From Convolutriloba macropyga (lineage: Eukaryota): 64,000 nt of DNA. The position numbers and the translations under genes are program-made. This document shows, one piece after another, positions 15,760-56,900 of the stretch. The stretch is taken from NCBI RefSeq assembly GCF_964194025.1, contig NC_134474.1, positions 36,952,001-37,016,000 on the forward strand, given 5' to 3'. The notes under the pieces were generated by a model. The model made no database searches, was not told the DNA's origin, and saw only the letters and a program-made list of their open reading frames with translations. The first letter of the stretch is position 1, and each line of letters opens with the position of its first letter.

Positions 15760-15907
15760 AGTAGTAATAGGGCGAGCAAGGCTCCCCGGGGGGGGGTGTA
15801 GACCCCATGTATTAAGATAGGGCATAGGAGTAATTTTTGAGAGAGGGTCTACACTAATGTATTAAGATAGGGTATAGGCGGCGTACATGTATTAAGATTA
15901 GTAATAG

Positions 15908-15999
15908 CGGCCGCCACGTATTAAGATTAGCGGCCGCCACGTATTAAGATTAGCGGCCGCCACGTATTAAGATTAGCGGCCGCCACGTATTAAGATTAG
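15908..15999. repeat. 4 x 23-bp perfect tandem repeat CGGCCGCCACGTATTAAGATTAG
   Basis: Counted directly. Confidence 0.98.
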
Positions 16000-16269
16000 G
16001 AATATCCTCCGCAATGTATTAAGATTGGGGATAAATCTAGGGGTGTTCCAGGGGGTGAGTAGTAAGGTGGGAGCAGATCAGGGTGATTTTTCGGAGCCAC
16101 TTGTCACGTGATTTTAGAGGTCATTTAGGGATTAGCAGGGAATTATACATGCAACGCGCAGGGAATTGCACAGTCAGCGCGTACGTACAGGCGGGGAATT
16201 GTACAGGCAGCGCGCATTAACGGATATTTTCCCTCGTAGTAAACTTCATCATTTTTTGGTTTAACCACA

Positions 16270-16485
16270 GCAATGTATTAAGATTAGGTATAGCCGCCGC
16301 AATGTATTAAGATTAGGTATAGCCGCCGCAATGTATTAAGATTAGGTATAGCCGCCGCAATGTATTAAGATTAGGTATAGCCGCCGCAATGTATTAAGAT
16401 TAGGTATAGCCGCCGCAATGTATTAAGATTAGGTATAGCCGCCGCAATGTATTAAGATTAGGTATAGCCGCCGCAATGTATTAAG
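16270..16485. repeat. 7.4 x 29-bp perfect tandem repeat GCAATGTATTAAGATTAGGTATAGCCGCC
   Basis: Counted directly; shares the GTATTAAGATTAG core with the 23-mer. Confidence 0.98.
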
Positions 16486-16639
16486 GTCAGTTATATCCAC
16501 TAAAATTGAGAAAATTGAAAATTTTTAAAAGAATGAATTATGAAGGTACAAAAAGACAGACACAGTATTAATCAAGTACATTATAAGTAATTTTAAACAC
16601 AACAGAGAGCGCTCACAATACGAAAATTGATTCAATAAA

Positions 16640-19600
16640 TTACAAGTTCAGGGGTACAGTATGAATTCCATCAGATAACACTTTTCGTTTAGGATAAAAA
16701 TATGAGAGTCCTTTCTTTGTTTGTTCATAGGTAGCGGCGCAGTGGTTGATTGTCCGAAATCCTCTATTTGTAGATGTTAAATTGATTATTTCTTCCATCA
16801 CTCGCCGATATTTTTCCAATGGTCCATCTCCGGTCTCTTCCAATGTTCGTTTGTTCAGTCCTTTGCTGCTGAATTTGTACTTATCCGATTTGGCATCGTA
16901 GCAACAATATGTTTTGCTACAGAGACAAATCATTTCAGTACATCTAAATTCTTCGTTGAACAGACCTGGTTCACGCTTATCGTGCTTTTTATGTTTATCA
17001 CAACAAGTTCTAGGGAAGAAATTTTGTACAGCATCAGCTTTGAAAGAATCATCACAATTGTGTTCCCTCAGAGTTTCCCAATCTGCTTTTTTAGATGGAC
17101 GAATGCAATCGTACAAATTATCGTGCGCTAGAGCTAAGTATAAGGAGTCAGTGTCCACTTCTAACTCTTCGAACGTGTCGACATCGCAAAATTTATCAAA
17201 AAAATTGTAATAAAGCTCCAACATACGTAATTTTGCGTACTGAAGTATAAAAAAGCCGACTATTATCGGTTCACGGTGCTCAATTTTTGATTTTACAAGT
17301 TCAACTTCGTTTAGTTCTTTTGACACACTGTTAAGTCTCTTAAACAATTTCCCGTTGATAGCTTTGTGTGTCTTTTCATCGTTCAAGTATTTTGTCTCTG
17401 TATGTCTGCTTCTGTCCATGATTTGGTAACCATAGGAACTATTCCCTAACAATTTCATTGTTTCTGCAACAACGCTTGATTCAGGATTTTCATCTCCAAC
17501 TCTTCTAGCATCAACAACCGATTGGACAAAATTGTTGAAGCATTTTTTGGGTGTGTACTGAACGAAGCGATAAATTTTGGTGCATTTTAGCCCAAGACTA
17601 AGGTAAAAATTGAGTAATGGTGTTATGACTGTTCCATTCTCCAACTTGAAGCTTGAAATTAACATGCGTTGCGGTTGCTTGAGTAAATCGTTATCAATTG
17701 CATAATCCCTCATATAATCACCAATATCTGCTCGACTAACATTAAAGTTTTTAAAGATTGGTGGAAAGTTCGAGAACTTGTATTTCAACCCATCTGGAAC
17801 TTCGAGATCACACTGAACGTAACCAAATAGTTTATCTTCTCTTATCTTTGTAAGTAGAGATTCTTGAGTCAGAGGTAGCTTGAATGGGAAATTGTTTCTC
17901 ACGTGAATTTTTACAGATTCATCACCTTTGACAGTTTCCCACCAGTTACATTCCCATATCTCAACAACTTTATATCCTTTGTTTCGCAAATAGTCTCGTC
18001 TTAGTTCATCGTATTCCCGTTTCTTTAATCCTTTCTGAGTCTCTTCCTCTGACATGCTTGCTCTTGCTTCCTGACATGCACAAAAGTGAAAGTAACAACC
18101 CATTGCTTCAAAAATAGTTTTACAGTGAGCACAAAATCCGTCTACATTAAAACAATCAATCTTTTTCTGAGTTCCAGTTGTGTAGTAGCTTTCAATAGTG
18201 CAGTTAGGACGTTGAGATTGTAGGTACGACATAACCATGTTCTCAAATTTCCTCGATTTATTTTGTCTAGCTTTAAACTTCTGAGAGTCTGAATCAAACT
18301 CCCATCTAGTGTAAAGTCCAGTGGGCATTTCTTGACACATGGAGAAGGGGTAAAGTTGACTGGCGTCTATACCCACAATTGATTTGCAAATGTTTTCTGT
18401 GTTTCGAATGTAGGTTTGATCCACAATTGCTTTTCTAGTAAACACAATAGAGGGACCACCGGTCATATCTTCGCGTATTTTATCATGTAAATCTTTGTCT
18501 GCTTCAACGAAAGGATAGAATTTGCTATTAGTTGATTTGTGTAGACAAATATTTGCTAAATTAGGTAGTGTGCAACCCAGTTTTAACATATCAATCCCTT
18601 TGTTATGATAGAATTCCATCATTTTCTGCATCGCTTCTAGTGTCGGGACAACATCTTTGTTATTATACCACCTGACAAAGTCTTGAAAAGTTGTCATTTG
18701 TTCGTGCTCCCACACACTTTCCAGGTAATTGTAGTTGTCGAATCCCGAGGGGGGCACTACCTTCAACCTAAGTTTTTTCAGAGCCTCCTGTTGGGAAAGT
18801 CCACTATTCAACAATTTTGTGAAATCCGTAAATTCTTTTTCCAAGGGATTGTGATCTCTCAACTTACTAAAGAAACATTCGTAAGGGGGTAGGAAAGTTA
18901 CATCCAATTTGTTTGGTGAGTCGAACCATTCATAAGGGAAAAATCCTTTGGTCTCATTTGTCTTGTAAGCTTTGAGGAACGAATCTAGTGATGTTGCTCC
19001 ACCAAGAAAGTTTAGAATATCGAGAAACTGAACATCGCCAAATTTAAAGGATACAAAATGATTAGCTTTTTTAATAACCGTTGGTTGAATATCGCGCTCG
19101 TGAATGAGGTAGGGTAGTAAATAAGACTTGATAAGATTCAGATCATATTTCCCGCTGTTGAATCCAAATACAGGTAAAATGCTGACATAACGTTCAAAAT
19201 GTTGTTGTAGTTCGAGAAGTTGATTTTTCTGAATTTGGAGGAATTGAGTCGACATATCAATTTCTTCTTCTTCGATATATTGAAATTCAAACATTGGAGT
19301 ACTCTCATCTTTCCTTCCATTTAGCTTCTCGAAAATAGAACTTACTCTGTTTTTAATTGCATTTTCAATTGAGGAAAATTTTTGCAACATTTCTGCTTTA
19401 CTTCTGCTAGCTAATTCTTCTAATGCTTCAACAAAAGATACAATTAGTGTCTTGGGGTCTCTGTTGCAAAGGAAAATAGGTTCTTGTAATAAATTAGAGG
19501 AAATTGACACAGATATTGGTTCATGTTTTCCTATCCAAGTAGTTGTATTGGTATCTTTTAGTTCATTAGATGGAACGCAGATTGATTCGAAGTCAAATAC

Positions 19601-20989
19601 AGCCAAGTTTTTGAACAGTTTTTGTTCTTCCTCATATCCAATTCCAAAACCGTCAAATTTATCGAACAAAGTTTCTCTCAAAGTGTAAACACTCTTCGGA
19701 TAAATGTGCTGTATCCTATCTTTACAAGATTTCACGTGACGGTGGAAATTACCAGCACGCTTAATAAAGGTATCACAATTAGGACAGCGGAATCGTTTGA
19801 AAAACGTGTTGATATCATCAACATAGCAAATGTGGTTGTTGTAGCGCAGTAGATTAATGTTGTTCTCGTACATATCAATACTTCTTCTGGCAAGTTCACC
19901 TACAAAATCCCCGTCCTCAATGTCAATGTCATAAATGAAAATGTTGTGTTTTATAGCATTTTCAACAAACACAAGGTGATCCATTGACACTCCTCTAAAG
20001 TTAATTGCGTCATGACCAGACTCGTGGAGAAAGTCACTGAACAACTTAGCTGCGTTTGTTTCCAGCTCAGCTGATCCATACAAGTGAACAGCCACAGCTC
20101 TAAACAAGCAAAGGTAGTCCTTGTAGGTTTCTCCGTATACATTCGTAACAAGACAATTTACATCGCTTCTCCTCAACAACTGTTCAGGTATAACAGCATC
20201 TAAACATCCCATTGGGATATTGTTGAGAAGAGCACAGAAAACTGTTACATTCGTAGTTAGTGCATACCGCCATTTTGTGTTTGCCCTTTCTTGAGCACAA
20301 GTCTCAATCAAATTCAATTTCTCTACTCTATCCTGAAGTGAGACTAAGTCTCCCTTAGAACAAAGTAAATGAGACTTCTCAAAGAAGGTGTTGTTCTCAT
20401 GAGCATAAAAGTATCGGTATTCGTCTGTGTCAACATTTCGTAAAATAAATCCCAGGGATAAATTTATTTTTGCAGCACAGTTAAGCTTTTCAAACACTTC
20501 CTTCAGTTTTTCATTAATTTCGCTGGGATCAAGTCTCGACAATTTAAAATTGAATACTGTATGTCTCCCATTCTCCATCTCAGTATTGTCAAAGAAGTGT
20601 TGACAGGCACTAAGTTCCTGCTGTAACTGTTCGTTGTTCCTATCCAATTCTTCCGATTCTAGTACTTCTTTCAAGCTTTCGCTGGATTTGGTTCCAACTT
20701 TGGTCGATGTTCCGTGTTTCCGTCTCTTATGTTGTTGAAGAGAATAAAAACTTGGAAATTCCTCCAAGCATATAGTGCACACTGTACTAAGCTTCTTTTC
20801 TTGAGGAGCGTGATGCTTAGCAAGGTGGTAGTTCAAGTCCTCTTTCCTCTTTGTGTAGAAATGTGGACACTTGGGACATTTTAAAGTCCCACTATCACAC
20901 GATTTTTTGTGTCGAGCCATTTGCTGCTTGACAACCATTTTCTCGCACTTTGAGCATTTGACAGGTAGATTTCTATCAAGAGGAGGCAT
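16640..20989 (-). CDS. polB: Protein-primed DNA polymerase B (1449 aa from first ATG) with zinc fingers, OTU-like domain and inserted Vsr-like nuclease
   Basis: ExoI VFDFES, ExoII FNSGKYD, ExoIII YNNKDV; TGGPS; motif A DASQLYP, motif B KLLGNSSYG, motif C VDTDSL; SKTY and KG. The ORF-track start at 21007 is TTG; the first ATG is at 20989. Confidence 0.95.
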   Translation of the reverse strand: MPPLDRNLPVKCSKCEKMVVKQQMARHKKSCDSGTLKCPKCPHFYTKRKEDLNYHLAKHHAPQEKKLSTVCTICLEEFPSFYSLQQHKRRKHGTSTKVGTKSSESLKEVLESEELDRNNEQLQQELSACQHFFDNTEMENGRHTVFNFKLSRLDPSEINEKLKEVFEKLNCAAKINLSLGFILRNVDTDEYRYFYAHENNTFFEKSHLLCSKGDLVSLQDRVEKLNLIETCAQERANTKWRYALTTNVTVFCALLNNIPMGCLDAVIPEQLLRRSDVNCLVTNVYGETYKDYLCLFRAVAVHLYGSAELETNAAKLFSDFLHESGHDAINFRGVSMDHLVFVENAIKHNIFIYDIDIEDGDFVGELARRSIDMYENNINLLRYNNHICYVDDINTFFKRFRCPNCDTFIKRAGNFHRHVKSCKDRIQHIYPKSVYTLRETLFDKFDGFGIGYEEEQKLFKNLAVFDFESICVPSNELKDTNTTTWIGKHEPISVSISSNLLQEPIFLCNRDPKTLIVSFVEALEELASRSKAEMLQKFSSIENAIKNRVSSIFEKLNGRKDESTPMFEFQYIEEEEIDMSTQFLQIQKNQLLELQQHFERYVSILPVFGFNSGKYDLNLIKSYLLPYLIHERDIQPTVIKKANHFVSFKFGDVQFLDILNFLGGATSLDSFLKAYKTNETKGFFPYEWFDSPNKLDVTFLPPYECFFSKLRDHNPLEKEFTDFTKLLNSGLSQQEALKKLRLKVVPPSGFDNYNYLESVWEHEQMTTFQDFVRWYNNKDVVPTLEAMQKMMEFYHNKGIDMLKLGCTLPNLANICLHKSTNSKFYPFVEADKDLHDKIREDMTGGPSIVFTRKAIVDQTYIRNTENICKSIVGIDASQLYPFSMCQEMPTGLYTRWEFDSDSQKFKARQNKSRKFENMVMSYLQSQRPNCTIESYYTTGTQKKIDCFNVDGFCAHCKTIFEAMGCYFHFCACQEARASMSEEETQKGLKKREYDELRRDYLRNKGYKVVEIWECNWWETVKGDESVKIHVRNNFPFKLPLTQESLLTKIREDKLFGYVQCDLEVPDGLKYKFSNFPPIFKNFNVSRADIGDYMRDYAIDNDLLKQPQRMLISSFKLENGTVITPLLNFYLSLGLKCTKIYRFVQYTPKKCFNNFVQSVVDARRVGDENPESSVVAETMKLLGNSSYGYQIMDRSRHTETKYLNDEKTHKAINGKLFKRLNSVSKELNEVELVKSKIEHREPIIVGFFILQYAKLRMLELYYNFFDKFCDVDTFEELEVDTDSLYLALAHDNLYDCIRPSKKADWETLREHNCDDSFKADAVQNFFPRTCCDKHKKHDKREPGLFNEEFRCTEMICLCSKTYCCYDAKSDKYKFSSKGLNKRTLEETGDGPLEKYRRVMEEIINLTSTNRGFRTINHCAATYEQTKKGLSYFYPKRKVLSDGIHTVPLNL

Positions 20990-24530: not shown

Positions 24531-24846
24531 TAATGGAAGATGAAATGAGAATTATGTGATAAGAACAATTTTTCAGAGGACAAAAAGTGTAATTGTGAGA
24601 CGCAACAGAGTATTCACTAGTAAGCAAGTAAGGTTTATAATCCTTAACTGATACGCAAATGAACAAGGCTTTCTCACAAAATTTTTTATAAAAGTCAGGT
24701 AAAACTTGACACATAACTGCTGCCATTCTGTAACCAAAGTGATTTTGGAGTGATTCTTTTAAACTACCGTATAAGGAAATAACGCAATTCAGTTCAAACA
24801 CAGCGAAAATTTCGTTTGAAAAATGACACAGTTCAAGAGACAGCAA
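24505..24846 (-). CDS. Polinton ORF or exon, Cys-containing, unknown function
   Basis: 113-codon open frame overlapping the previous ORF. It starts at TTG directly after a tttttctag acceptor-like site, so the true start is uncertain. Confidence 0.45.
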   Translation of the reverse strand: MLSLELCHFSNEIFAVFELNCVISLYGSLKESLQNHFGYRMAAVMCQVLPDFYKKFCEKALFICVSVKDYKPYLLTSEYSVASHNYTFCPLKNCSYHIILISSSINELLQKIG

Positions 24847-24891
24847 CTAGAAAAATCCGTTGTTTTACTTGTTCTAATTATTTCAAACACT

Positions 24892-25080
24892 ATTACTCGC
24901 TAATGCAACACAGACGTGCTAAACATCAAGATAAATATGCTGCTCTAGTTCAAATGTTTGCTCAACTTAAAATTTCTGACTAAGTTTCCTTATAAGGAAT
25001 TTTTGCAAAATGACGCAATTGAACTAGAGCAGCATATTTATCTTGATGTTTAGCACGTCTGTGTTGCATTAGCGAGTAAT
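24892..25080. repeat. Perfect 62-bp inverted repeat (24892-24953 / 25019-25080) ending at the gap
   Basis: Exact reverse complement with a 65-bp spacer. Confidence 0.97.
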
Positions 25081-25280
25081 NNNNNNNNNNNNNNNNNNNN
25101 NNNNNNNNNNNNNNNNNNNNNNNNNNNNNNNNNNNNNNNNNNNNNNNNNNNNNNNNNNNNNNNNNNNNNNNNNNNNNNNNNNNNNNNNNNNNNNNNNNNN
25201 NNNNNNNNNNNNNNNNNNNNNNNNNNNNNNNNNNNNNNNNNNNNNNNNNNNNNNNNNNNNNNNNNNNNNNNNNNNNNNNN
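25081..25280. other. Assembly gap (200 N)
   Basis: Run of N. Confidence 1.
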
Positions 25281-30550: not shown

Positions 30551-33500
30551 ATAGTAAAGTAAAGTTTATTTAACCGATTGTTGAAATAACAGCATTTTAT
30601 GATAAGCCCAATACAAATATGTCAGCCAAACAATATGTAACAAAAATGAATGAGCTATTTGGCTCTTCAAAGTTGATGGCCATAGAGATATAAAGTTCTT
30701 GGCTAATTTATAAATGAAATCATAGATCATAGAAAATAATTCAAACAAAGTATTTTCGTCTGGTATAAAAGTTTTAGCAAGCATTTTGAAAAAAAGCGAC
30801 GCTCAAATTAGAGCACAAATTTATATTGGGTGGTAGCAAGTCTGCGCTTTTTAAACAGTTGTATGCTTTTCGGAGCGTGTTTTCTAGTGACTTTTCCTTA
30901 GTGCGCGTCCTACTGTATTGAGAGCGTAATCTGTTCTTTGCGACGAGTATTATAGACAGGATCCAGACCAGAGCTTTCAGTGGGGATTTTTAGGGGCAAT
31001 TTGGATCTTAATAGTAGTAGAAGTTCTTTGAAAACTTCACAGAAACACAAATCGAAAAATGTTAACAAGTTGTCCTGCTCATAGATGTTACGAAGGGGAT
31101 CTATTTTTCGTTTGAAAAAGATAGCTCGAATTATCCTTCTATGGCAGTTTTCAAGATGCTGTAAGGCTATTTTTCAAGCACTTCCATATATCAGAAGACC
31201 ATAAGTTACAATTGATTTCGCATAGGAATGATAAAACGTCAAAATGTGTTTAATGTTGAAAAGGTTTAAAATTTTAAACTCGGTATAAAATGCCACAAAA
31301 TTTGTTCAATTTCTTCGTTATATACAATTTGTCTTCTTTGTACGTCAGCTTCGGGTCCAGATAAACTCCAAGGTACTTGCATTTGTGACCTGTAGCTATT
31401 TCTTAATCCTTAAATTTGAATATGCCGCTGACTTGCGATTTTTACCGGAATGAATTAATGTGCACTTTGAGTAGTTCACTGATAGTTTGTTCCATTTGAA
31501 CCAGTCAATCAAAGGGATCAGTTCTTGATTAAAAACATCGAATTCCTTGCCGGAACCCACTAGTGTTGTATCATCAGCAAAGAGACTAACTCTGCTTTGC
31601 TTAATTTGATTTGATAGGTCGTTGATATAAACGACAAACAAAAACGGGCCCAGGATTGAGCCCTCAGGAACACAAGTTTCAATTACTATTGTTCCAGTAC
31701 ATTTCCTTCGATGACAGAAATACTGAGCTCTATCGGACATGTAATTTATCAATATTTTTAGATTTGGCTCACGGAATCCGTATCTCTCTAGTTTTTCCAA
31801 GAAAATTTTATGATCCAGCGTATCAAAAGCTTTTGAAAGATCCAGAAAAATTGCATGCCCTTGCTGTCCACGCTCAATACCTTCTCTGATGTAATCAGTT
31901 ATTTTTGCTATAGCATGTGCACAGGCGCGGTGAGAACAGAATCTGAAATGTCGTTGGTTGAACAGGTTTTTAGTCACAAAAAATTAAACATCTTAATATA
32001 GAGAACATTTTCAAAAACTTTTGAGAAACAATTCAAAAGACTGATTGGTCTGTAATTTCGACAATTTAAGTAGTTTCCTTTTTTGTATACTTTAAGTAGT
32101 TTCCTTTTTTGTATAATGGTGAGATTTTTTTTCAATTTTGAGGCATTATGGAGAAAAATTTTCTCAAAGAATTTGTTAATAGCTAAAGCAAAATACGGTT
32201 CAAGGAATGGCGAGCAACATATGAAACTTTCATTACAAATGCCATCGTTACCAAAACTTTTTTTGTGTTTCATGTGGGATAAAATATTTGCTATCTCATC
32301 ACAATTTGTTGGGAAAAGAGGCATCGACCCAACAATTTTTTCCACTGAAAACGTTTCAGACGCTTGCTGTATCCTATCCGATACCGTTCTACCAATTTTC
32401 GCAAAACAATCATTCACTTTGTCTTTTTTTGGAGTTTTGTGATTGACCATATCATAATTAGTTATAGAGCGGAAAATTTGAAAAAGTTCCCGACGACATG
32501 GATTGGTTCCTATTTTTTCATATTCTCTATTTTTATCTGCGTGCGGATTTTTTGTGTTACATCATTCCTTGAACGCTGATATCAAAGTTTGTTTTTATCG
32601 GTCGGAGAATTCAGCCATAAATGAAGAAATTTGTTCCTTTTATTGATCGCGTTCTTCATATTGTTTGTTATCCAAATGCCTTTTCTTTAACAATTGACTT
32701 CACGCAAAGGTGCAAACTTTTGAATTGTATCCATTATTGATTTCAATATTTCAATGTAAATATCTAAATATCTTCGGCAGTGACGTTATCAAGATCAGTT
32801 TTTCGCAGACTTTGGTCCCGCACGAACAAAAATTTAAGACTGTTTTCACCCTTTAGCTTTGAAATGTCTCGCTGCCAATTTGGTTCTTCCTTGATAACTA
32901 GCTTTTTGGTATTGCTGGTGAACACCCCCTGAATTGCAAAATGATCACTCTTAGTTGTTGTGATAGTTTCAGTTGCTATATATTTTCCCATGGTTGATGG
33001 CGTGACTCTAGTCGGTTCGCAATTTTGCACTTGGAAATCAAATGTTTGAAATGATTTGAGATATTGTTCAGTTTCATAACATTGCTTAGGTATATCAATA
33101 TTCACATCAACAAGTATAATGGTCTCGCCGTTTAAATTGTTTAAAAACAGCAACAAGTTCTCAAAGGCATCCAGAAATTTTGTCAACCGGGAATTTGGTG
33201 GTCTGCAAATCAGGCAAAAACGTTTCTTGTTTCCGTCAATGCCAATTTCGATTATCAAATTTTCAATTCGATGGTATTCGATTGTTTAATTGTTATGTGT
33301 AGGAGATCGTTTCTTACATAGAAGCCAATTCCACCAGCTCTTCGCGAGTCATTGAGGGATTTAGAAATGATTGGGTGATATCCTTCGAAGTGATATATTA
33401 CTACCGGATCTTCCTCTGCCAGCCAGGTTTCCGTAAGGCCTATCAGATCCAGCTTTGTACCAAAATCGTCTACAAAGGTTACCAATTCGTCAAAACGACA

Positions 33501-34255
33501 CCTTAAAGTCCTAATATTAAGTCCAATGATATTGCAATTCACTGTTTCTTTATTAGCCTCGGCTTGGTACTCAGAAAAAGAACATTGTTTTGTTTACAAG
33601 TTTTCCCGTTACCTTTTGCAGTTAAACTTTTTTGTCTTAGATTTTTTTTCGCTGGCTTAACGTCGCTTATTAAGAAAAAACCACCAATGGAAGTTTGACC
33701 GCAAAAAAGCTATGCCTTGTTTGGCACTCGCTGTGACTTCAAATCAGCACTGATTTCACTTGAAGATTCTCTCGATCTTTTTGCATTGAAGCTCTGGATG
33801 TCAATTTGCCTTGGCGTTTTCTCAAGACAAAAAAACCCGGCTGCTGTCTTGGTATGAGGAGGATGCTTTTTCTTAGTCACCGCTACCTCTTTTATGTCAT
33901 CAACGGCTGTAATACTTTTTTTCAACAACACTGCGAAAAACACCTTCTGTGTTCTTCTTGAAGACCTTCACATTGCAATTGAATGTAGTGGTAATAAAGC
34001 CAAGAGATTCTGCGTGCTCTTTTAAGTCTTTTTCAATTCTGGGGACACGCTCCTTGATTAAGACTCCACGACCATTCGAAGGATTATTAGTTTGATCTAA
34101 CCATGGCTTGCGGCCAAATATCTCCATTGTTTCGTTAAAATATAAAAAATTTGACAATGATTGCAGTTGGATATGCTGGATTTGGTGACTTACCAAGGAT
34201 GTGACACGCCTTGAAACTATATACTTTTTGTCTCATGGCTCAACAGAAATGGAAT
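30551..34255 (-). mobile_element. Decayed CR1/L2-type LINE (ORF1 relic, APE endonuclease, RT)
   Basis: APE: LNIRTL, GLTETWL, RAGGIGFYV, SDH. RT: NYRPISLL, FLDLSKAFD, VPEGSILGP, YINDL, FADDT. 3' end AATAAA+(CTTTA)n. Frameshifted; interrupts the duplicated segment. Confidence 0.92.
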
Positions 34256-36805
34256 ATAGTTTTTGAGGCACATCGAGTTTTTGTTTGTTCTTATTCAGTC
34301 GCGAACCTAAAATAGTCCCATTAAACGCTAATTACATTCAAAAATTTTCCGACTGCCAAGGAAAAGCATTGCAAAACAATTAATTGACGGTGCCTATCTG
34401 ACGGTACCTAACGCCTTCACGGGCCAATTGACAACTTTTTTTTCAAATTATTTTTATTATTTTTGCCAAATAGCTGAAATGAAAGGAGATTCTACTTCAG
34501 AAAATGTTTATTTCATATAACTATTCTCTTCACAGAAATGTCAATAGAAAACACCAGGGACAGAGATCGCAGCGACACCGGTAAACTGTCAGAGATTTCT
34601 ATCCATTTAAAGTGAATAGACCACCTCCTGTTCGTAACTGTTTTTGGTCTCAGAAATGCATCATCTGCGTAAAAAGAACTCTTGTTTTCATGGATTGATG
34701 TTGCTCCTTATCAAATCAATGACAATACCATCAAGAAGTAAAAACAGCTGTATTTCAAATGGTAAGGAAAATTTGTGGATTGGATACAAATGAGATTAAA
34801 TCTACTTAAAGGGCCACAAACTGTATAATGGAGATCGAAAAAACTGTATGAAGATTGAAAAATTTGTAAATAAAAAAATATATTAAATAGACAAAAGACA
34901 AAAAAAAGAGTTTCAATTCTCCATAAAAAGGACATTGATAACGACAAAAAACTGAATTACAGTGTACCCTAGCGTACAAGAAACAATGAAAGAAAGTTGA
35001 AAATTGAAAACACTAAAACAACTTTCCATTTCTAAATTAAATCGACTGATTAAAAAGATGTAAGCTCTGAATGTTATCTGTTGGTTGCCCAAAAAATTAT
35101 TTTCCTCAATACGTCAAAAATTTTTCGCCTAAAGAATTCAACCCGTGCGTTTAAAAGATTTATTATACAGTTTTTCAGAACCAATCAAAAAGATGTGTCC
35201 TACAGGGAACAGCGCTTGGCCATGCAATGCTGTAATGTAGTTTTGAAAAAAAATGCCAATGCCAGCAACATTCTCAAATATCAACATGAGACGTTAAATA
35301 TTTCGGAATCGGAATATACAAGCTATTGCAAGCCTGAATCTAATTATCTCTGATCTTGACATACACTTCTGTAAAACAGCCAGAAATGTGGCAACAAGAC
35401 TGAAAGAAAATATAACAAAGTCAATTTTGAGACTCTTGGGAAACTTGAAAGCCGAGCGACTTTTCGTTCCCAAAAAATGACATAAGGTAACAAGACAATA
35501 AACACATTGAAGAATCAGCTACTTATAAAATTGTTGAGATGATTACTTGAAGCAGTGATTTGGCTTGCAATGAAGATAATAGCTATCATTTGAGAAAATC
35601 TTCGGGAGAAGCTACCAAAAAAACAGATAACTGTCATTTAACAACGTTTCAAATTCGTTCAAAAATTATCAAATATCTGTTCTGATCTGAGAACTTTCTG
35701 AAGAAGTTTTTGATGAAATTTAATTAAGAGATCAAAAATACAAAAAGTATTATTACAGTTGGCAGAAATTTAATTTCAAAACAAGATCATAAAGGAAAAG
35801 AGTTTCCATTCTCCATAAAGTTGCAAAATTTTATGTAAAAAACTAAACCAAACGTTCTTCCTAAACAACTCTATTAAGCCTATGTTACAAAAATGTTACA
35901 AATGGCCTTAAAATGTTACATACTAAATGTCAATATCTGTGACATTTGTTTATTTATTAAATTACTAGACAAAACCTCTTTCTCACAAACCTCTGCATGT
36001 CTTGAAAGAGAACACATTCTGAACCTTGAGAATTTCAGCTTCAGATCAATATTCTCCGTGGATTGAGCTCCACTGTACTTTTCAGAGTCATTTTGAAAAG
36101 TACCTTAATATTATGAGATAGTGATCTTTTGGCAAATTCTTTTTTTTTGAAATAATAATTGCACAATTTTTTTGCTCACTGGTTGCCCTAAAATTCATTT
36201 TCAACGAATATGTAGCTTTCCCTCCAAAAGACTTAAACTTATGATTACAAATTTTTTATTATCCAGCTCCAGCTCTCCAGAACCAAAAAAAATTGTACCG
36301 CAGGGAACAGTGCATAGTCATGCCCACATATAACATCCACCTTAGTGATTTGATGCTTACGAGGTTTTCAGAAAAAATCAAATAAACTGTAAACTAATTT
36401 TTGGAAGAAAATTTTGTTAATTCCAGCAACATTTTCCAATATCAACAAGGGACGTTAATTATATGGAAACGTAACATATATGCTTTTGCAAATCTAGAGA
36501 TAAGTGTCACTAATCTTGACATGCAATTCTACTAAACACCAAAAAATTGCCAACAAGACTGAAAGAAAATATAACGAAGACAATTTTGAGTCTTTTTGGA
36601 AATTCCGAAGACGAGCAACAATTTTTTTCTAAAACAGTGCAAAACGTAACAAGACAAAAAACACAATGAAAAACCAGCTGCTTACAAAAAAAAATGAGAA
36701 GGTTAATTGACACAGTGGCTTTTCTCATACTTAACATAACAGCTATTTCTTGGGCAAATCTTACAGACAGCAGAAAACACAAATCTTTCATTGTGTTTTT
36801 CCTAT

Positions 36806-39020
36806 ATAACTCTATTTAGCCTATGTTACAAGAATTTTAGAAACGGCCCTTAAAATGTTAGGAACTGAAGTTTTAAAACTGGCTTTTGAGAACAGCATAA
36901 ATTCGTTCATATATTATCAAATATCTGTTCTGACTTGAGAGTATTGTGGACAAGTTTTAATGAAAGTTACTTAAAAAAACAAATAAAAAACACACTAAAA
37001 TGGATTGCAAATGACAGACATTCTGTATTAAATTTCAACTCTGCATTAAATACCATTGGTTATAATAAAATTTGAAAAACAGTGCACCATAAAAATACTG
37101 AAGTCAGTTGAAATTCAAATATCAACAAAAATTACCTGCAAATTTCTTTTTAAAAAATCAACCAACTGATTACAATATGTTATGTTATAGGTTCTGGTTG
37201 TCTAACTGCTTTCAAGACACTTCAAGTTTTTCTGCAAAGTTTGCAAATATTTGTTTCTCAGATTTAAGTGATCTTTTTTGGTGGAGAACAAGACCGGACT
37301 TTTAAAAAATTAGCTCGATTTTTATGAAGTATTATCACAAAAGTGAGGTACAGAGGAGTGTCTACCCTTTATCTGTACCACATACATCTATTGGAAAGAG
37401 TTTTTTCTGTTTTTGATTTCAATTTTTTGGTAAATTTTCATGCAATTTTTTATGTACAGAACTAAATCAAACCAAACCAAGTTTTTCCTGTGTAACTCTG
37501 TTTAGCCTTTGTTACAAGAAAGTTAGAAACGGCCCTTAAAATGTTAGGAACTGAAGGTTTATAACTGGCATTTGAAAACAGCATAAATTCGTTCATATAT
37601 TATCAAATATCTGTTCTGACTTGCGAGTATTGTGGACAAGTTTTAATGAAAGTTAGTAATAAAACAAATGAAAAAGACACAGAAATGGATTGCAAATGAC
37701 AGACATTCTGTATTAAGTTTCATTTCTGCATTAAATACCATTGGTTATAATAAAATTTGAAAAACAGTGCACCATAATTATACTGAAGTCAGTTAAAATT
37801 CAATTATCAACAAAAATTACCTGCAAATTTCTTTTTGTAAAATCAACCAACTGATTACCATATGTTATGTTATAGGTTCTGGTTGTCTAACTGCTTTCAA
37901 AACACTTCAAACTATTCTGCAAAGTTCTCAAATATTTGTTTCGCAGATTTAAGTGATCTTTTTGTTGGAGAACAAGACCGGACTTTTAAAAAATTAGCTC
38001 GATTTTTATGAAATATTTTCACAAAAATGATTTACAGAGGAGTGTCTACCCTTTATCTGTACCACATACATCTATTGGAAAGAGTTTTTTCTGTTTTTGA
38101 TTTCAATTTTTTGGTAAATTTTTTATGCAATTTTTTATGAACAGAACTAAATCAAACCAAACCAAATTTTTCCTGTATAACTCTATTTAGCCTATGTTAC
38201 AGGAAAGTTAGAAACGGCCCTTAACATGTTAGGAACTGAAGGTTTATAACTGGCATTTGAAAACAGCATAAATTCGTTCATATATTATCAAATATCTGTT
38301 CTGACTTGCGAGTATTGTGGACAAGTTTTAATGAAAGTTAGTAAAAAAACAAAGGAAAAAAACACAAAAATGGATTGCAAATGACAGACATTCTGCATTA
38401 AGTTTCAATTCTGCATTAAATACCATTGGTTATAATAAAGTTCTGAAAACAGTGCATCATAAAAATACTGAAGTCAGTTAAAGTTGAAGTATCAACAAAA
38501 TTTACCTGCAAATTTCTTTTTAACAGATCAATCAACTCATTACATCATGTTATGCTATAGGTTCTGGTTGTCTAACTGCTTTCAAGACACTTCAAATTTT
38601 TCTGCAAAGATTGCAAATATTTGTTTCTCAGATTTATGTGATCTTTTTTGGTGGAGAAAAAATCCGGACTTTTAAAAAATTAGCTCGATTTTTATGAAAT
38701 ATTATCACAAAAGTGAGGTACAGAGGAGTGTCTACCCTTTATCTGTACCACATACATCTATTGGAAAGAGTTTTTTCTGTTTTTGATTTCAATTTTTTGG
38801 TAAATTTTTCATGCAATTTTTTATGTACAGAACTAAATCAAACCAAACCAAATTATTCCTATATAACTCTATTTAGCCTATTTTACAAGAAAGTTAGAAA
38901 CGGCGTTTAAAATGTTAGGAACTGAAGGTTTATAACTGGCATTTGAAAAACAACATAAATTCGTTCATATAATATCGAATATATGTTCTGACTTGCGAGT
39001 ATTGTGGACAAGATTTAACA
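36806..39020. repeat. Tandem array of about 685-bp units (3 full + 1 partial)
   Basis: The aactctatttagccta anchor (one variant copy) recurs at about 36808, 37494, 38179 and 38865 with collinear interiors. Confidence 0.95.
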
Positions 39021-42000
39021 AAAATTACTAAAAAAAAAAACAAATGAGAAACACACAAAAATACACAAAGGTAACAAAAACACACAAAGGTAACCAGACA
39101 AAAAACAGAATGAAAAACCAGCAGCTGCTTACAAAAAAATTGTGAAGATTAATTAACACAGTGGTTTTTTCTCATACTTTACATAACAGCTATTTCATGG
39201 GCAAATCTTACAGACATCAGAAAACACAAGTCTTTCATTGTGTTTTTCCTATATGACTCTATTTAGCCTATGTTACAAGAATGCTCGAAATGGCTCTTAA
39301 AATGTTATAAACTAAACGTTTTTATCGGTACATCGGTGTTAATTGTTTTTTTCTATATTATAAGAGAAACTCCAATTTTTTTGAAAAAATTGCAAGTATT
39401 TGTCGCCAAAAATGGGGTGACGGATCTGGTGGTGAACGAGACTGGCCTTTAAAGTTTTTAGCTGTCCTTTTTCCACGGAATTTCAGAGTGTTGCGGAGGA
39501 GGGTTTTCAATTTATTTGTGCCATCCACCCATCTAAAAAAGATTTCACTCTGTTTTTTGATACCCTTTCTTAATATAATTTTTTTTGTAAATTTTTGAGC
39601 AAAACACTGAAGCAAGCAAAAGAACTCTATTTAGCTGATAATACAGCAATGTTTGAAAATGGTGCTTTACATGTTATCATTTACATGTTTCTATCAGTAC
39701 GAATGTGACGTCTGTTTTCTTCGGTCAAAAATTTTCCGAGAAAAATTTCATTCTCAAACCTCTGCACTTCTTGAAAGCACACTGTGATCCTTAAGAATTT
39801 CGGCTTAAGATCAATACTATCAATGGATTGCGCTCTACAGTAATTCTCAGAATCTTTTCGACAGGAACCTGATTTTTACGAGAAAGTGATCCTGAATTTT
39901 TTGCTAAACTTTTTTTGAAATACCACCTCACCAACTGTTGCAAAAGTTTTTATTCACGGGATGACCGCAAAATTATTTTAACCTGTGAGTAGAAATTTTC
40001 GCTAACGATTCTTTTTTCATGCTGATAAAAGATTTTTTATCCAGCTCTTGAAAAGCAAAAACAGCTGTCCCACAGAAAACAGCGATTCCTCATGCTCTTA
40101 TCCAACATCTACTCAATGGTCATGACGCTTAAATCTGATGAAAACTAAATTTGTGCAAAACTTTGATGCTTGTTCATTGTATTGAGAAAAGAATTCAAGT
40201 ACTGTTGGAATGTGAAAACCATGCTAACGCTAGCAAAATCTTCAAATATTATTAAAAAACACTAAAAAAATAAAACTCCCTGAATGTGCGCATATAACTT
40301 TTGCAAACCTGGTGATAAGTGTCTCAAATAAGTTTTTATAAGATAAATTTTTTTTATTAAAGCAATTGGAGGGATTTCCGCTTTGCATAAAAATTGACAC
40401 TTTCAAATGCCACGCTGTTTCATTATTTTTTTCTCGCTCACTGACGAATTACCTTTTCTCCTTCATATATTTACACTGTCAACCGGAATAACTTCATTTA
40501 GAATTCACGTGTTTCTCTCCCATGCCCCAGGTTGTACATATACATTTTGGTAATTAGACTGAAGTTTCTCACAAAAACAATTTTCAGAATACGGCAAGAT
40601 GACTCGCTCGAAGTTTTGCGTAGCACAGAATATTCCAACATTCGTCTCAAGTTTGTGAAAAACTTCGTCTATTCTGAGTTGAAAATATTTTTTGACTGTC
40701 AATTAATCGAAGCTCAATTTGATGCTTTGTTCCGTAGCAAACTTGAGTACGATTTTTTTATTCTGCAAAACTAATGTTTTCAAAGCCCTCATGTTAACAT
40801 AATTTTACCAGATGAACATCCATTGCTTTATCAATTATGTCACAATGAAAAACAAATTTTCACAGAGGGTTAATTTCAGGAAGAGCAACAAATGAAAAGT
40901 TTAAATTCGTGTAGAAAATTAACCCAAACAATGGAGTAGAGTATTATAAGAAGTTCAATTGTGGGCCAGATGTTAATTGCCAGTTATTATCAATTCAAAT
41001 GACCTATAAAAAAAACAATTTTGAGAGAAAGAGAAGAAAATGAAAAAAATTGGGGGTTGGGGTGTTGTTACAATTGTTATGTAATTGTTGTATAATGGAA
41101 CGTTTATAACATTGTATAGATGCTTCGAGGTTAATGAGAACCTTATGATAAGACAGTGTTTTTTGAATAATATCCTTAAAAAAGTCCGAGTTTTACATTA
41201 TTTCTGAGGTTTTTCTGCTAAATCGCAGATTTTTAAGCTTTTTCATATTTTTTCGAATCAATGAGAATAAAAACAACGCGAAAAGACAGTTTTTGCTCAA
41301 AAATTTCTTTTGATACCAAATATTGACGGATTCTGTGGAATAAATTTGTTTCAGAGGAGTAACAACACCTAAAAAAGGCACATTTTGTAACTGTTTTTGC
41401 CAATAGTCGAATTTACCATTTTTTCTCCAAAAACAGATTTTTTCATGTTTCCGAGATGGTTACTTGATTGCTGTTTCAAGAAATTCGTGGTTCCAATAGC
41501 AGACAAAAGAACCTTTTCAATAAGAACCTTTTCAGGTTTTTAAACTCAATTTTAACACGCTTTGTTAGCAATTATTGTAATTACCAGACAGCTCACAAAA
41601 TACAGAAATTAACTGAAATTTCACACCCAAATGAAAACTTTTGGACACTTGGTAAGCTTACTCTCAATTTTTATCTCTTCTTATTTTTTTATATTTCAAT
41701 CCCGATGTGGGTCAATTGGTCAAGGTCGGCTATTACTCATTTAGTTATGGCTACGTACAATTTAATTGGATTGATTTTCTTCAAACTTAACGTAAAATCC
41801 TGTATTTAAAGGCAATGAAAAACACGGATAAAGTCGTATTTTTCTTATTTTTCGAGGGCTAATTCACTTACCTACACTTTAAAATGGCTTTTTCTTAAAA
41901 AAAATGATAGCTCAACATGTTTCCAGTGTATCTTAAATGATTTTAAAAAAACTATTTGAAAAGTGTGAACATCGAAAACTCGAAAACAAAAGAAACCAAG

Positions 42001-51289: not shown

Positions 51290-52870
51290 ACATTTTTCAA
51301 TGACTTTGATCGTTCAAAACGGGATAAACAGGTAAAGCCCAGCGGGCATTAACTTTCATTAGAGGCGCAAAGTGGGCTTTAGTTGTCCTTCAAGTGCTAA
51401 TAGTGGTGCAGCTGTTGGGATGGCCTTAATTTAAGGTTAAAAGGTCATTTTTAGGAGTTTTTGGGCTCAAAATGGTGCAATTTTTCATGTTTTTGTGATT
51501 TTTTTGAGTTTCTTTGTTTGATTAGTCTCAGGTTGAAGTTTTTAAAAGTTCAGTAAGGTAGTTTTCGACACAAAATTGCTTGTTATGACCATTTTATGAG
51601 CTATAACTTTTGGTACTACAAACACAAACTCGCGAAAGGATACTAATTTTTGAAATTTTTTTCAGGTTTCTTGAAAATTTTTGTCATTTTCTGAGTTTTT
51701 TAGCCCTAGGTGCCAAGAAACCTCCTCTAGAGTTTGATAAAGGGTTTGATGATAGATTACTTCATAGTTTCTAGTGGTAATGGAATTGTTTTCAACTTTT
51801 TGCCATCATGAATTTTAGCATTTTTTGACAAGGCTTGTAATTTTCATATTTTTTTGACATTTATTGTCATTATTCAAGTTGTTTGAGTCCCAGGGGCCAG
51901 AAAACCTCATTAGCGGTTAGATGATAAGTTACCGAAAATTTTTTAGATGCCATGGAATAGGTTTCAACTTTTGAATATCCCAAATTTTAGCAATTTTTTG
52001 GACAAAATTTGCATTTTTTTCAGGTTTTTGAAAATTTTCGTCAGTTTTTCAGTTTTTGCAGCTTCAAGGACGAGGCAATCTCCTTTGAGGTTTGTTAATA
52101 GGGCACTTCATAGTTTCTTGTAGCAATGGAATGGTTTTTAACATTTTAGTGTCTCGAATTTTAGCATTTTTTCTTTTTTTAATCTGCAATTTTTTTAAGG
52201 TTTCCTAAAGTTTTTGTCAGTTTTTGATATTCGTCCAATCTCAAAGTGCGAGAAATCCTATTCCACGTTCTGATGAAAATTTACTGCATGGTTTTTAGTT
52301 TCAATGGAATTGTTTTCATCAATTTAACCTTTCGACTTTTGGAAGTTTTTTGCTAAAATTTGCGAAAAGTTTTTTCAAAACATTTGTATTTTATTTATTT
52401 TTTCTTGTCTCAGTAGACAGGTAACCTCATCCAGTGTTTAATAGAATGTTATTAAATAATTATCAAGTGCTAGGTGGCAATTGAATGGCTTTCAACATTT
52501 TAATAGAACGAATTTCTATTTTTTGAAGTTTGAAATTTTTTCTAAAAATTATTGCCTATCGATCTATGAGCCAATGAGTTTTTTAAAGCTTGGAATTGGG
52601 TTACTGGATAGCCTCTAGAGTTATAGAAATGATTCTCAAGATATTTATATCACAAATTTCAGAAACAATTTCTGATAATTTGCAATTGATTTCTTTTCTG
52701 AAATTTTTTGGTCATTTTCGAGTTAATCATCGATCTTCAAGGGCCAATGAATATTTTTCAGGTCTTTCAGATATAATACTGGACCGATTTCAGAAACAAA
52801 AGATGATTTTGAACATATTTTTGAAATAGGTATTATTAAAGAGAATAAATTTTGCCTAAGGTTTGAAAGC
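51290..52870 (+). repeat. Repeat element with a conserved head and degenerate ~185-bp internal tandem units
   Basis: The head gggataaacagg..agcgggcattaa recurs at about 54390 and, more diverged, at about 56335. Units carry gttact..atagtttctagtg..aatggaat..ttcaac..gaattttagca. Confidence 0.8.
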
Positions 52871-53964
52871 TTCGAGTTTTAGCAATGAGTATATTTTGTT
52901 TAGTTTTGATTCTTTTAATTTCTCAATTTTTCGAGATGATTTTGTTTGTTTTCTGTCTGGAATTGTTCAATTGATCTGCTGGTCAGGTAGAGTATTTCTG
53001 AGTTTTTCATTCAATTCTTTGAATTGTATTTCAGGACTTGTCCTGTTATGTTTTTTTATTTCGTCGTCATGATTTTTGTTACGACCATATGACGTCATAG
53101 CCACTTTTTGTTCATTCGATCATGCAATTTCAACTGAATTGCATGTGTGAACGTCATTTTTCTTTCTTAGTGGAGCGAGTTTTTTTGTTCATGCGCGTGA
53201 TTAAATTTTTGGTCACACTGGACTTACCTCGCTCTCAAAAATGACTTCCTCACTTTGAAATTGACTTTTATTCATTTTAATTCAAAGAGATAAGGTCAAA
53301 TGGGTGTGTGTCACTCTAAATGAAGGCTATTTGAGATCAGCTAATAGCAGCAGCAATAACTTATACAGATTTTTAATCAAAATATAACAGATCAGCCTTC
53401 AATGAAAAGACGAATTTTTTTGGTCTGTCTTTTTTACTGTTTTTTTTAGACTGCCGATCACGAATCTATTGCGGCTATTTTCTGGCAATCTGCCAGCTAT
53501 GTTTGAGGATTCCCAGCAAGCTGGATGGCACTCTCCCCATACGGTCAAGTGAAAATACCATATTCTGCCTCGAACCGAAGAATTTTTGCAGGTTTTCAGA
53601 ATACTGAGAGCAACAAATTTCCAACTGCAATCTCTGAAAATCGTTTGAAATTTTTTTTAGAAGTTTTGAAGCATGGTTTATTTTCGGTTAATGGGGGTAT
53701 AGGTTGTGCGACCATTAAGCTGGAAGGGGAATATAATGGGAAAGACCAGTGAATTCTGCTACGTGGATTGTAAATTTCGAAAGCCGGCGTCGCATCTTGA
53801 AATTTATAATTGATATGGTTGGTTGTCATGGTTGCTTTTTCGATTAGTTGAGTTGACTAGAAATTATCAGGTCCAACTAATAGCGACTCTCTGTTTGCCA
53901 GAATTAGGACGTAACATGCCAGTTTATAATACTAATTGGTGATGTTTTTTCAGATGCTACTCCT

Positions 53965-56900
53965 ATGTCGGGTTTCTATGGTGATTATACCGGTTGGAGT
54001 AAAAATAAGAAGTGGCGGGAAGCCAAACCAGAAAAAGCTGAATTAAGTGATAACGATTCTTCTGAAGGTGAAGACAGTGTTCTGACCACTGATGTGCAGC
54101 TTGCAATGTGGGATCTGGGACATTGTGATCCGAAAAGGTGTTCTGGTAGAAAGCTTCAACGTTGTGGATTTGTCAAACCTCTCAAATTGAAGCAGCGGTT
54201 TAACGGAATCATTCTTACACCCAATGCTGCGCAAGCAATTAGGTAGTTTCTAATAAGTTCACGAGGTCGTTTAATTGCTCTCAAACGAAGTTTGTCACAA
54301 TTATATTAGTCCTGTCGGTCTTTTTTTAATCCGATTTTTCGCTTGACCGATTTTTCTCTGACGCTTTTGTTTTTTTCATCCTCAAAAATGGGATAAACAG
54401 GCAGCGGGCATTAAGTTCTCTTAGAGCCTTTCAGCTCTGTTTCAGCTGAAACTGTTTTGGAGACTTATACTTATGGTGTAAGTATAAGTCTCCAAATAGC
54501 TACCCCCCCCCCCCCGCCCCGTTTATAGCTACCCCGCAAATTTATACTATTTTGCACAATTTTTCAAGCTTTTTGAAAATTTTTGTCATGTTTTCTAGTT
54601 TTATTAGCCCTAAGTGTCAAGGAACATCCTTTAGGTTTTAATAATAGGTTACTGCATAGTTTCTAGTGGTAATGGAATGGTTTGAACATTTTAACATCAC
54701 GAATTTTAGCATTTTTTTTGATAAAACATGCAATTTCAAATTTTTTGACATTTATTTTTCCTTATTCAGGTCTTTCCAGACCCACGGGCCAGAAAAACTT
54801 CTAAGGAGTTCGTTAATAATTTACTGACCAATTTTTATGGGCAATTGAATAGTTTTTCAACTTTTTACTGTCACAAATTTCAGCAATTTTTTAATAAAAC
54901 TTGCTTTTTTTCAAGATTTTTTGTTGAAAAGTTTTGTTTGTTTTTGTTTTTTTTTCAGCCTCAAGAGGCAAGGAACCTCCTTTAGGGTTAGGAAATAGGT
55001 TACTGTATAATTTCTAGATGTAATGGAATGTCTTGCAGGATTTTAACGTCACGAATTTAAGCATTTTTTCTGACAATTTTTGCCATTTTTTTTTACAATT
55101 TTTTGATATTGTCATTATTCAGGCTTGAGCCTCAAGGGTCAGAAAACCTCCGTTAGGGTTTGATAATAAGTTACTGGAACTTTTTTTGGTCTTGGATTAA
55201 TTTTCAACTTTTTTAATATTACAAGTTCTAGCATTTTTTTAAAAAAGTTTTCAGTTCTTTGAATTTTTTTTTTATTTTTTAAGTTTTTCTAGACTCAAGA
55301 GCTGCAGAAATTCCTCTAGGGTTTAGTAATATATTACTGCATTGTTTATAGTTGTAATGGAATGTTTTTCAAGATTTTAGTATCACAATTTAAGCAATTT
55401 AATAAAGTATTTGCAATTTTATGTTTTTGGCACCAGGGGCCCTGGGACCTCCTAGGTTTGATAGTAAGCTGCTGCATAGATTCTTGAGTCATTGGAATGG
55501 TGATCATTATTTTTTACGACCAGTTTTAGTAATTTTTGGATAAAATTTTAATTTTTTTCCAGTTTTTGGAAAATTTTTATCATGTTCAAAGTGTATGGAT
55601 CTTTATGAGCCAGTGAAACTATTTCAGGCTTGAAAGAGGGATACTGGATAATATCTTGAGACAATGAAATGGTTCTCAAGATATTAAGATTTTGAATTTT
55701 TGCAAGATTTTGTTAAAATTTACAATTGCTTACAAAATTTTTCATATTTTTGTCCGTTTCGTATTTTTTGAGTTTAACGACCATTACTGGACAACGAAAC
55801 TTTTTAAGTCTTGGAGATGAGTTACCTGACAGAAATTTTGTTCAAATTGTTTCGAACGTTTTTACTGCGAGGTTTCAATCTTTTGTTTTTACTTTTGCCC
55901 TTTTCAGTTTTTTTTCTATGTGATTTATTTACTAACAAGGCTAGAAAACTAGAAGTTGCAACTAGAGTCGAATCCCATCATGGGAAATATTCCGATATCT
56001 CTTTCTTTTTCGGTGGGTTAGGGTTTCTTTCTTTCTCTTTCTCGTTCACTTTATTTTCTCTCACTCTATCTCTCTTTTTTTTTGTTGATGCCGCACTTCA
56101 GCTGCTGTAATGTGGCGTAATATCATCTCTGATCCTCATTAACAATGATTTATAGTAGAAATGTTTTTTTTTCATCTTAAATGACTTGTTTTACAGGCCG
56201 TTTTTAGGAAATCATTGTTAATTGCTTTCAAAAAGCAATTTCTAGCAAATATGTTAATCCTGTTTGTCTCTTTTTTGCAAATTTTCGCTTGGCCGATTTT
56301 TTGTCGGACTCATTTGACTTTCGTCTTCAGAAACGGGATAAAGGGGTAGCGCCCAGTTTGCATAACTTCTCTTAGAGCCGTTCAGCCCACTTGTCTGCAA
56401 GTATGCGATTACCAGAAACTGTTTTGGAGACCTATACTTATGGTGTAAAATTGACTTATGGTCGGGAAATTGACTTATAACCGACTTATGGTCGGTTCTT
56501 AGAAATTGATCCCACACCCCCACCCACCTACCGCCCCCACATCAGTCCGCACAATCTGTTTTTACACCCCCGCTGCGCTCACCTTACGCCCTTCAATTAA
56601 TCGAAAGCTAGCCTCACTAAACCGTGGCTAGTTATTGATCAAGCCAACCGCTCGTGGGTCGTTTGCGAGCAATTCGCCCGACATTAGTTTATTTTCCTTT
56701 TTTTAATTGCAGTGATAGCTGAGCGAAGCAATCATTTGGCCTTCTGTTGCTTATTATGAATCCAATCCCAGAATAAAACTTCTCATACTAGACTCTGAAA
56801 ATGGGGATATATTCTGGTTCGGTCTCCAGTGTCTTATGACCCCATTTACAAATTATTTGTTGTTATATAACACGTTACTATGTGAAAATAATGAACCAGA

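Follow-up and report, generated by a model that had tools for sequence, protein, structure and literature searches.

The closest described relatives of the polymerase studied here are the protein-primed family B polymerases (pPolB) of Polintons. As set out in the accessible text of Krupovic 2024 (10.1101/2024.03.18.585575), Polinton pPolB has the order TP-vOTU-EXO-PALM, in which a terminal protein (TP) with a fold like the little finger of Y-family polymerases precedes an OTU with catalytic Cys and His; the linking residue of the TP lies between helix 2 and strand 4, and the vOTU is proposed to cleave the TP from the polymerase. Two further groups, in which an OTU accompanies a VSR insert, are compared here by their descriptions in the accessible parts of both reports: the pPolB2 with VSR from Polintons of marine nematodes and molluscs (Jeong 2023, 10.1101/2023.08.22.554363) and the Beta PolB class (Starrett 2021, PMC8502044). 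Beyond Polintons, a genome-linked primer protein may bear a DNA- or matrix-binding arm. According to the available excerpts, phi29 TP's N-terminal domain binds DNA independently of sequence, for nucleoid localisation (PMC4357725), and the adenovirus TP anchors the genome to the nuclear matrix (PMC4974454).

The window analysed here is a 64,000-nt stretch of the Convolutriloba macropyga genome (NC_134474.1, positions 36,952,001 to 37,016,000 of the forward strand). It holds one end of an element and a polymerase gene about 880 nt from the AGTAGT terminus at 15761, behind two repeat arrays. The arrays of 23-mers and 29-mers named in the first-pass annotation were indeed found. The features of the element in the window are as follows.

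15761..15766, plus strand: element terminus AGTAGT (from the sequence; other copies start at the same point)
15761..16498, plus strand: terminal inverted repeat (TIR) region with 16 copies of TGTAT[TA]AAGAT, one mismatch allowed (motif count; at both ends of full copies)
15905..15999, plus strand: 23-mer array, 4.1 copies (repeat scan)
16059..16098, plus strand: inner AGTAGT stretch, weakly resembling the end of another family, IV (80% over 41 nt)
16270..16485, plus strand: 29-mer array, 7.4 copies (repeat scan)
24892..25080 (also 25081-25280), no strand: 65-nt hairpin closing the window copy and adjoining an N run (from the sequence and comparison with full copies)

Paired AGTAGT ends were found in 14 of 19 genomic regions, with a matching 6-bp target-site duplication (TSD) in 13 of the 14; the five regions without such a pair are those of one family (II, below). 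Since these features of the copies agree with those described for Polinton/Maverick elements, including the AGTAGT end motif, in the accessible part of PMC8097293, we class the element as a Polinton/Maverick. [quoted passage not shown] The window copy has one end only: it lacks the second end as well as the structural genes, and its likeness to full elements ends at about 25025. A search with the N-terminal 200 residues of the polymerase gave 1773 candidate genomic places, and the 150 that were scored all match at 86-100%. Within the TIR region, the inner second AGTAGT (16059-16098) sits between the two arrays. Elsewhere in the window, fragments at 31396-33593 (minus strand) show, by eye, motifs of reverse transcriptase and of an endonuclease and look LINE-like; host tandem repeats occur at 36700-39300, with a period of about 685 nt, and at 51700-55700, with one of about 175 nt.

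The polymerase reads, from its N-terminus, as fingers F1-F3, TP, vOTU, F4, exonuclease, and a polymerase domain with a VSR-like insert. Helix residues are given from position -1 to +6.

16640..20989, minus strand: protein-primed family B DNA polymerase ORF, 1449 aa (ORF call)
20897..20956, minus strand: finger 1 (F1), C2HC, aa 12-31, helix VKQQMAR (motif scan, AlphaFold)
20810..20878, minus strand: finger 2 (F2), C2H2, aa 38-60, helix RKEDLNY (motif scan, AlphaFold)
20714..20779, minus strand: finger 3 (F3), C2H2, aa 71-92, helix SFYSLQQ (motif scan, Pfam)
20222..20572, minus strand: TP domain, aa 140-256, little-finger/PAD-like fold (structure comparison of the model)
19805..20194, minus strand: cysteine protease domain of the vOTU type, aa 266-395, including C294 and H386 (structure match)
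19724..19786, minus strand: finger 4 (F4), C2HC, aa 402-422 (motif scan, AlphaFold)
17933..18103, minus strand: aa 963-1019, an insert within the polymerase domain that resembles a VSR/DUF559 nuclease (Pfam, below cut-off)

Structural comparison of the model revealed that the TP domain matches the Y-family little-finger/PAD fold with Z 5.0-5.6, a score that is middling when taken alone. The following domain matches OTU proteases, at best with Z 8.3 and an rmsd of 3.7 over 115 aligned residues (OTUD1), and its catalytic pair is kept among 71 aligned rows (C294 in 69, H386 in 68). A PRD1-like TP fold followed by a vOTU with catalytic Cys and His, as in Polinton pPolB, is found here. Residue 238 is Thr or Ser in 69 of the 71 rows; T238 lies at the predicted linking position, between helix 2 and strand 4 as in Krupovic 2024, and is our candidate linking residue. 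The insert at aa 963-1019 matches DUF559 and MTES_1575 with E values of about 6e-4 to 8e-4, below the Pfam cut-off, and the protein gives no PF03175 match, as in the pPolB2/Beta PolB group as far as the accessible parts of those reports describe it. Further strings resemble polymerase motifs (aa 465, 610, 775, 875, 1179 and 1277). We presume that they correspond to the standard family B motifs and take the one at aa 465 to be ExoI.

The first-pass annotation had placed three tandem zinc fingers (C2HC, C2H2 and C2H2) at the N-terminus ahead of a presumed TP, and a fourth between the OTU and exonuclease domains. Motif scan, shuffles, Pfam and structure models confirm the three motifs, the TP fold does follow them at aa 140-256, and F4 lies between the OTU fold and the presumed ExoI motif. 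In 125-residue shuffles, at least three motifs occurred in 0 of 2000 and at least one in 0.95%. When scanned alone, aa 1-100 scores above the Pfam thresholds of zf-C2H2_4 (E 8e-7) and zf-C2H2_6, matches that fall below cut-off in a scan of the full-length protein; F4 alone stays below cut-off (E 0.002). AlphaFold predicts two strands and a helix (ββα) for each of the four fingers, and the pTM of 0.35 for the aa 1-100 model suggests that the fingers have no fixed mutual arrangement. F2 and F3 have the Krüppel-type spacing C-x2-4-C-x12-H-x3-5-H with ββα; F1 is C2HC here and C2H2 in three of the families described below (III-V). All 13 ligand positions are kept in the 30 closest genomic copies (30/30), and finger-region dN/dS is 0.04-0.28 in eight of nine subfamily pairs, the ninth being saturated, which indicates that the fingers are maintained under purifying selection and are not decaying. 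The arm is basic, with 21 K/R against 8 D/E in aa 1-98. F4 may resemble the Cys/His cluster found in adenovirus polymerase, as well as the finger of YOD1/Otu1.

The nearest solved folds to the finger region are DNA-binding C2H2 arrays, ZFAT (E 9e-4) and CTCF. With classical arrays of the ZFAT, CTCF and Zif268 type the fingers have in common the ββα fold and Leu at +4, along with the Arg+6 and Arg-1/Asp+2 that are frequent in the clade. Unlike these arrays, that of the window lacks TGEKP-type linkers (its linkers are 6 and about 10 residues), mixes C2HC and C2H2, carries aromatic residues at +1 and +2 of F3, and has no covarying target. A Foldseek search of the PDB with aa 1-450 gave no match at E <= 0.001. 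Among viral structures, aa 1-450 is most closely matched by UniProt A0A7D4VFN9 from Drosophila-associated adintovirus 2 (560 aa, E 2.5e-14 over 543 columns, 12% identity), which is automatically labelled 'C2H2-type domain-containing protein'.

Compared with Polinton pPolB as presented in the accessible text of Krupovic 2024, the window polymerase differs in having three fingers ahead of the TP and one behind the OTU. That text has neither 'zinc' nor 'C2H2', and N-terminal fingers are not mentioned in the accessible text of Jeong 2023 or of Starrett 2021, the latter with one supplement file. Word searches of the available portions of Barreat 2021 and a 2026 preprint gave no description of a finger array, the available text of Wallace 2021 (PMC8363768) has no 'zinc', and that of Yutin 2013 mentions C2H2 for other virophage and polinton proteins only. 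The array is thus undescribed in the literature searched, which covered text; figures and bioRxiv supplements could show fingers. Taken together, the polymerase and the element are of known kinds, and the array makes this terminal protein a genuine variant, one that extends across the clade and is apparently undescribed for Polintons.

To follow the fingers among relatives, we searched with a profile of the TP-OTU-F4 region, the fingers being left out; 4608 representatives matched, and the best 150 of these were examined. The alignment takes in the start of the TP in 114 of them, and in 66 the TP is preceded by 80 residues or more. One to five fingers are carried by 52 of these 66 and none by 14, counted by a regular expression that undercounts decayed copies. 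Relatives with fewer than 80 residues ahead of the TP are fingerless in 46 of 48 cases among the same best 150, and many fingerless relatives may stem from gene calls that are decayed or cut. Of the 94 among the best 150 that cover the position of F4, 81 have this finger. A quick tree built from 74 proteins has finger numbers between 0 and 8 and requires at least 24 changes among four size classes. Arg at +6 and Arg-1 with Asp+2 form the DNA-contact signature of classical fingers; among 130 fingers in the 66 relatives, the former occurs in 61 and the latter in 27. TGEKP-like linkers occur in 0 of 78. Named homologs come from Mercenaria (clam), Diadema (urchin) and Oculina (coral), and a search of viral contigs found no relatives. 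The finger array is therefore common in the clade and not peculiar to the window element.

The same genome holds five Polinton families (I-V), each with three fingers. Polymerase identity to the window is 85-86% for subfamilies I-B and I-C, 63-64% for family II, 48-49% for III, 47% for IV and 46% for V; when three outside proteins were used as queries against this genome, no closer family turned up. Modules are mosaic, in that family II is nearest to family I in the polymerase (63-65%) yet most distant in the capsid and ATPase genes. The polymerase gene is placed differently in family III, where a cluster of TTACGTCA(T/C) repeats lies 150-350 nt upstream of the polymerase start (L066, L072, L076, L079); we take these repeats to be bZIP/CRE-like. 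About 2.4 kb of tandem ACTACT/AGTAGT hexamers adjoin one family I-B end (L050), outside the element.

We propose that the array is basic and grips DNA with low specificity, remaining on the TP that is linked to the genome, by analogy with the phi29 TP N-terminal domain, and give this reading an even chance of being right. In this putative model, the fingers would hold DNA at the origin during initiation, and the TP would prime synthesis at T238. Cutting between TP and OTU, the vOTU would free the TP from the polymerase, and a finger-TP piece of roughly 260 residues would remain on each genomic 5' end. Given the domain order and the predicted vOTU cut, F1-F3 would go along with the TP on the genome, whereas F4 would be retained by the polymerase, where it would serve a structural role or contact DNA. 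On the TP, the fingers may tether the capped genome to host chromatin without sequence specificity; the first-pass annotation had offered such tethering beside sequence recognition, and it is the tethering half that forms part of our best reading. The DNA-contact residues of the clade and the charge of the arm point to DNA contact, and the variable finger number together with the missing TGEKP linkers is easier to reconcile with a flexible grip than with a fixed code. The likeness to the phi29 arm, and to the matrix anchoring by the adenovirus TP, is a functional analogy, the phi29 arm being an unrelated helical fold without zinc fingers, from a separate gene.

Some features pull against this grip. 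Arg-1/Asp+2 usually marks a genuine preference for sequence, and for other branches the label 'low specificity' may therefore be mistaken. In the window branch, the aromatic pair of F3 and a Tyr at +6 of F2 look more like a protein-contact surface. The fingerless relatives, 14 of 66 together with 46 of 48 with a short N-terminus, suggest that fingers may be dispensable, and the finger arm could be trimmed off, the cleavage position being a predicted one.

The alternative that survives best takes F2 and F3 as a protein-contact module, binding the TP or OTU in cis, the integrase, or a host chromatin protein; although unlikely, it would account for the aromatic +1/+2 pair of F3, which recurs in all five families and is found in 9 of the 130 fingers of the wider set. 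It draws as well on a small ORF of family I.

24861..24926 (ORF 24823-24983), plus strand: single C2H2 finger, identical to F3 at 11 of 22 positions, within a 53-aa ORF (comparison of family I copies)

This mini-finger ORF occurs in all eight family I elements examined, from subfamilies I-A, I-B and I-C (8/8), and pN of 0.04-0.06 against pS of 0.46-0.61 within the finger indicates purifying selection; in the window copy the frame is broken near its start. The 53-aa protein would then be a decoy or co-binder of the same partner. Pfam matches to the fingers of CEP104, XAF1 and ZNF451, below cut-off, agree with protein contact. However, the mini-finger was not found in families II-V and the partner is hypothetical; the strong net positive charge of the arm and the common Arg+6 and Arg-1/Asp+2 of the clade argue for DNA instead. 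A speculative combination, which we rate marginally lower still, is that a whole clade of animal Polintons caps its linear genomes with a covalently fixed, transcription-factor-like finger array that would tether them to chosen host chromatin or proteins and so steer replication and integration, the family I copy of F3 acting as a soluble decoy that tunes the tether.

It is improbable, to a greater degree, that the array is a sequence-specific origin reader, recognising not the repeat arrays but a core common to all ends, in which AGTAGT is followed after about 20 nt by a G/C run. In all five families the end does open with AGTAGT, and a run of G or of C occurs within about 40 nt; F1 keeps Arg+6 in all five with Asn, His or Gln at +3. 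Nevertheless, the contact positions of F2 and F3 vary freely, the linkers are non-canonical, and finger number varies across the clade.

The first-pass annotation had also suggested that the fingers could recognise the GTATTAAGAT repeats, read as the 23- and 29-mer arrays, and had named covariation of finger helices with terminal repeats across related elements as a check. We presume that GTATTAAGAT resembles POU/homeodomain sites. For the covariation test, TGTAT[TA]AAGAT was counted per end with one mismatch allowed. Family I has 14-26 copies per end; family II has 6-14, a count from the polymerase-side end only because the second end was not found in the 30 kb examined for each of five regions; family III has exactly one, near position 50; and families IV (one element) and V (two elements) have none. 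The ends of IV and V are complete, as indicated by their 58- and 62-bp inverted repeats and matching 6-bp TSDs; by integrase and ATPase these two families are nearest to one another, so their motif loss may be a single event.

Across the five families, helix positions -1, 2, 3 and 6 do not track the GTATTAAGAT motif. Family III fingers are 33-36% identical to those of the window, yet the motif, once per end, is the same, and IV and V keep three fingers with zero motif at either end. Of the 12 usual base-contact positions, only F1 Arg+6 and F3 Tyr+2 are invariant among the motif-bearing families, and both are invariant in motif-less IV and V too. There are points in favour of repeat reading: each of the two TIRs in family I contains the arrays, Lys at +1 of F1 is found throughout the families with the motif but in none of those without it, and families I and II differ both in repeat spacers and in F2. 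The first 304 nt of the family V left end, moreover, are nested (91-95% identical) inside many I-B/I-C ends, on the polymerase side (L047, L049, L050, L052-L059, L061, L104, L105). This indicates that ends were exchanged between families whose polymerases are 46-47% identical; the family I-type outer end around the nested one could mean that family I needs its own end. The covariation test, a comparison of sequences, largely refutes repeat reading, which we now regard as quite improbable. Weighing both sides, we consider it unlikely that the fingers target the repeats, and a host factor or another protein of the element would be their likelier reader.

Least probable is that the C2HC fingers F1 and F4 are UBZ-like ubiquitin binders serving the OTU as a deubiquitinase: they flank the OTU domain and family V gives one zf_UBZ match below cut-off (E 0.002), but UBZ fingers require a helix Asp adjacent to the His ligand, and at the two positions after the His neither F4 (common residues, 71 rows) nor the window F1 has it, Lys standing there, and F1 is C2H2 in families III-V.

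In summary, the gain from this locus is a domain variant of a known polymerase and not a new system. The fingers mark a large polymerase branch, in which 4608 representatives match the TP-OTU region and 52 of the 66 scorable top matches are fingered. How Polintons recognise their ends, gain access to chromatin and choose integration sites is the question on which the variant bears; the TP finger array offers a small, expressible handle on it, and the five families coexisting in this genome supply finger sets and end sequences as a natural panel.
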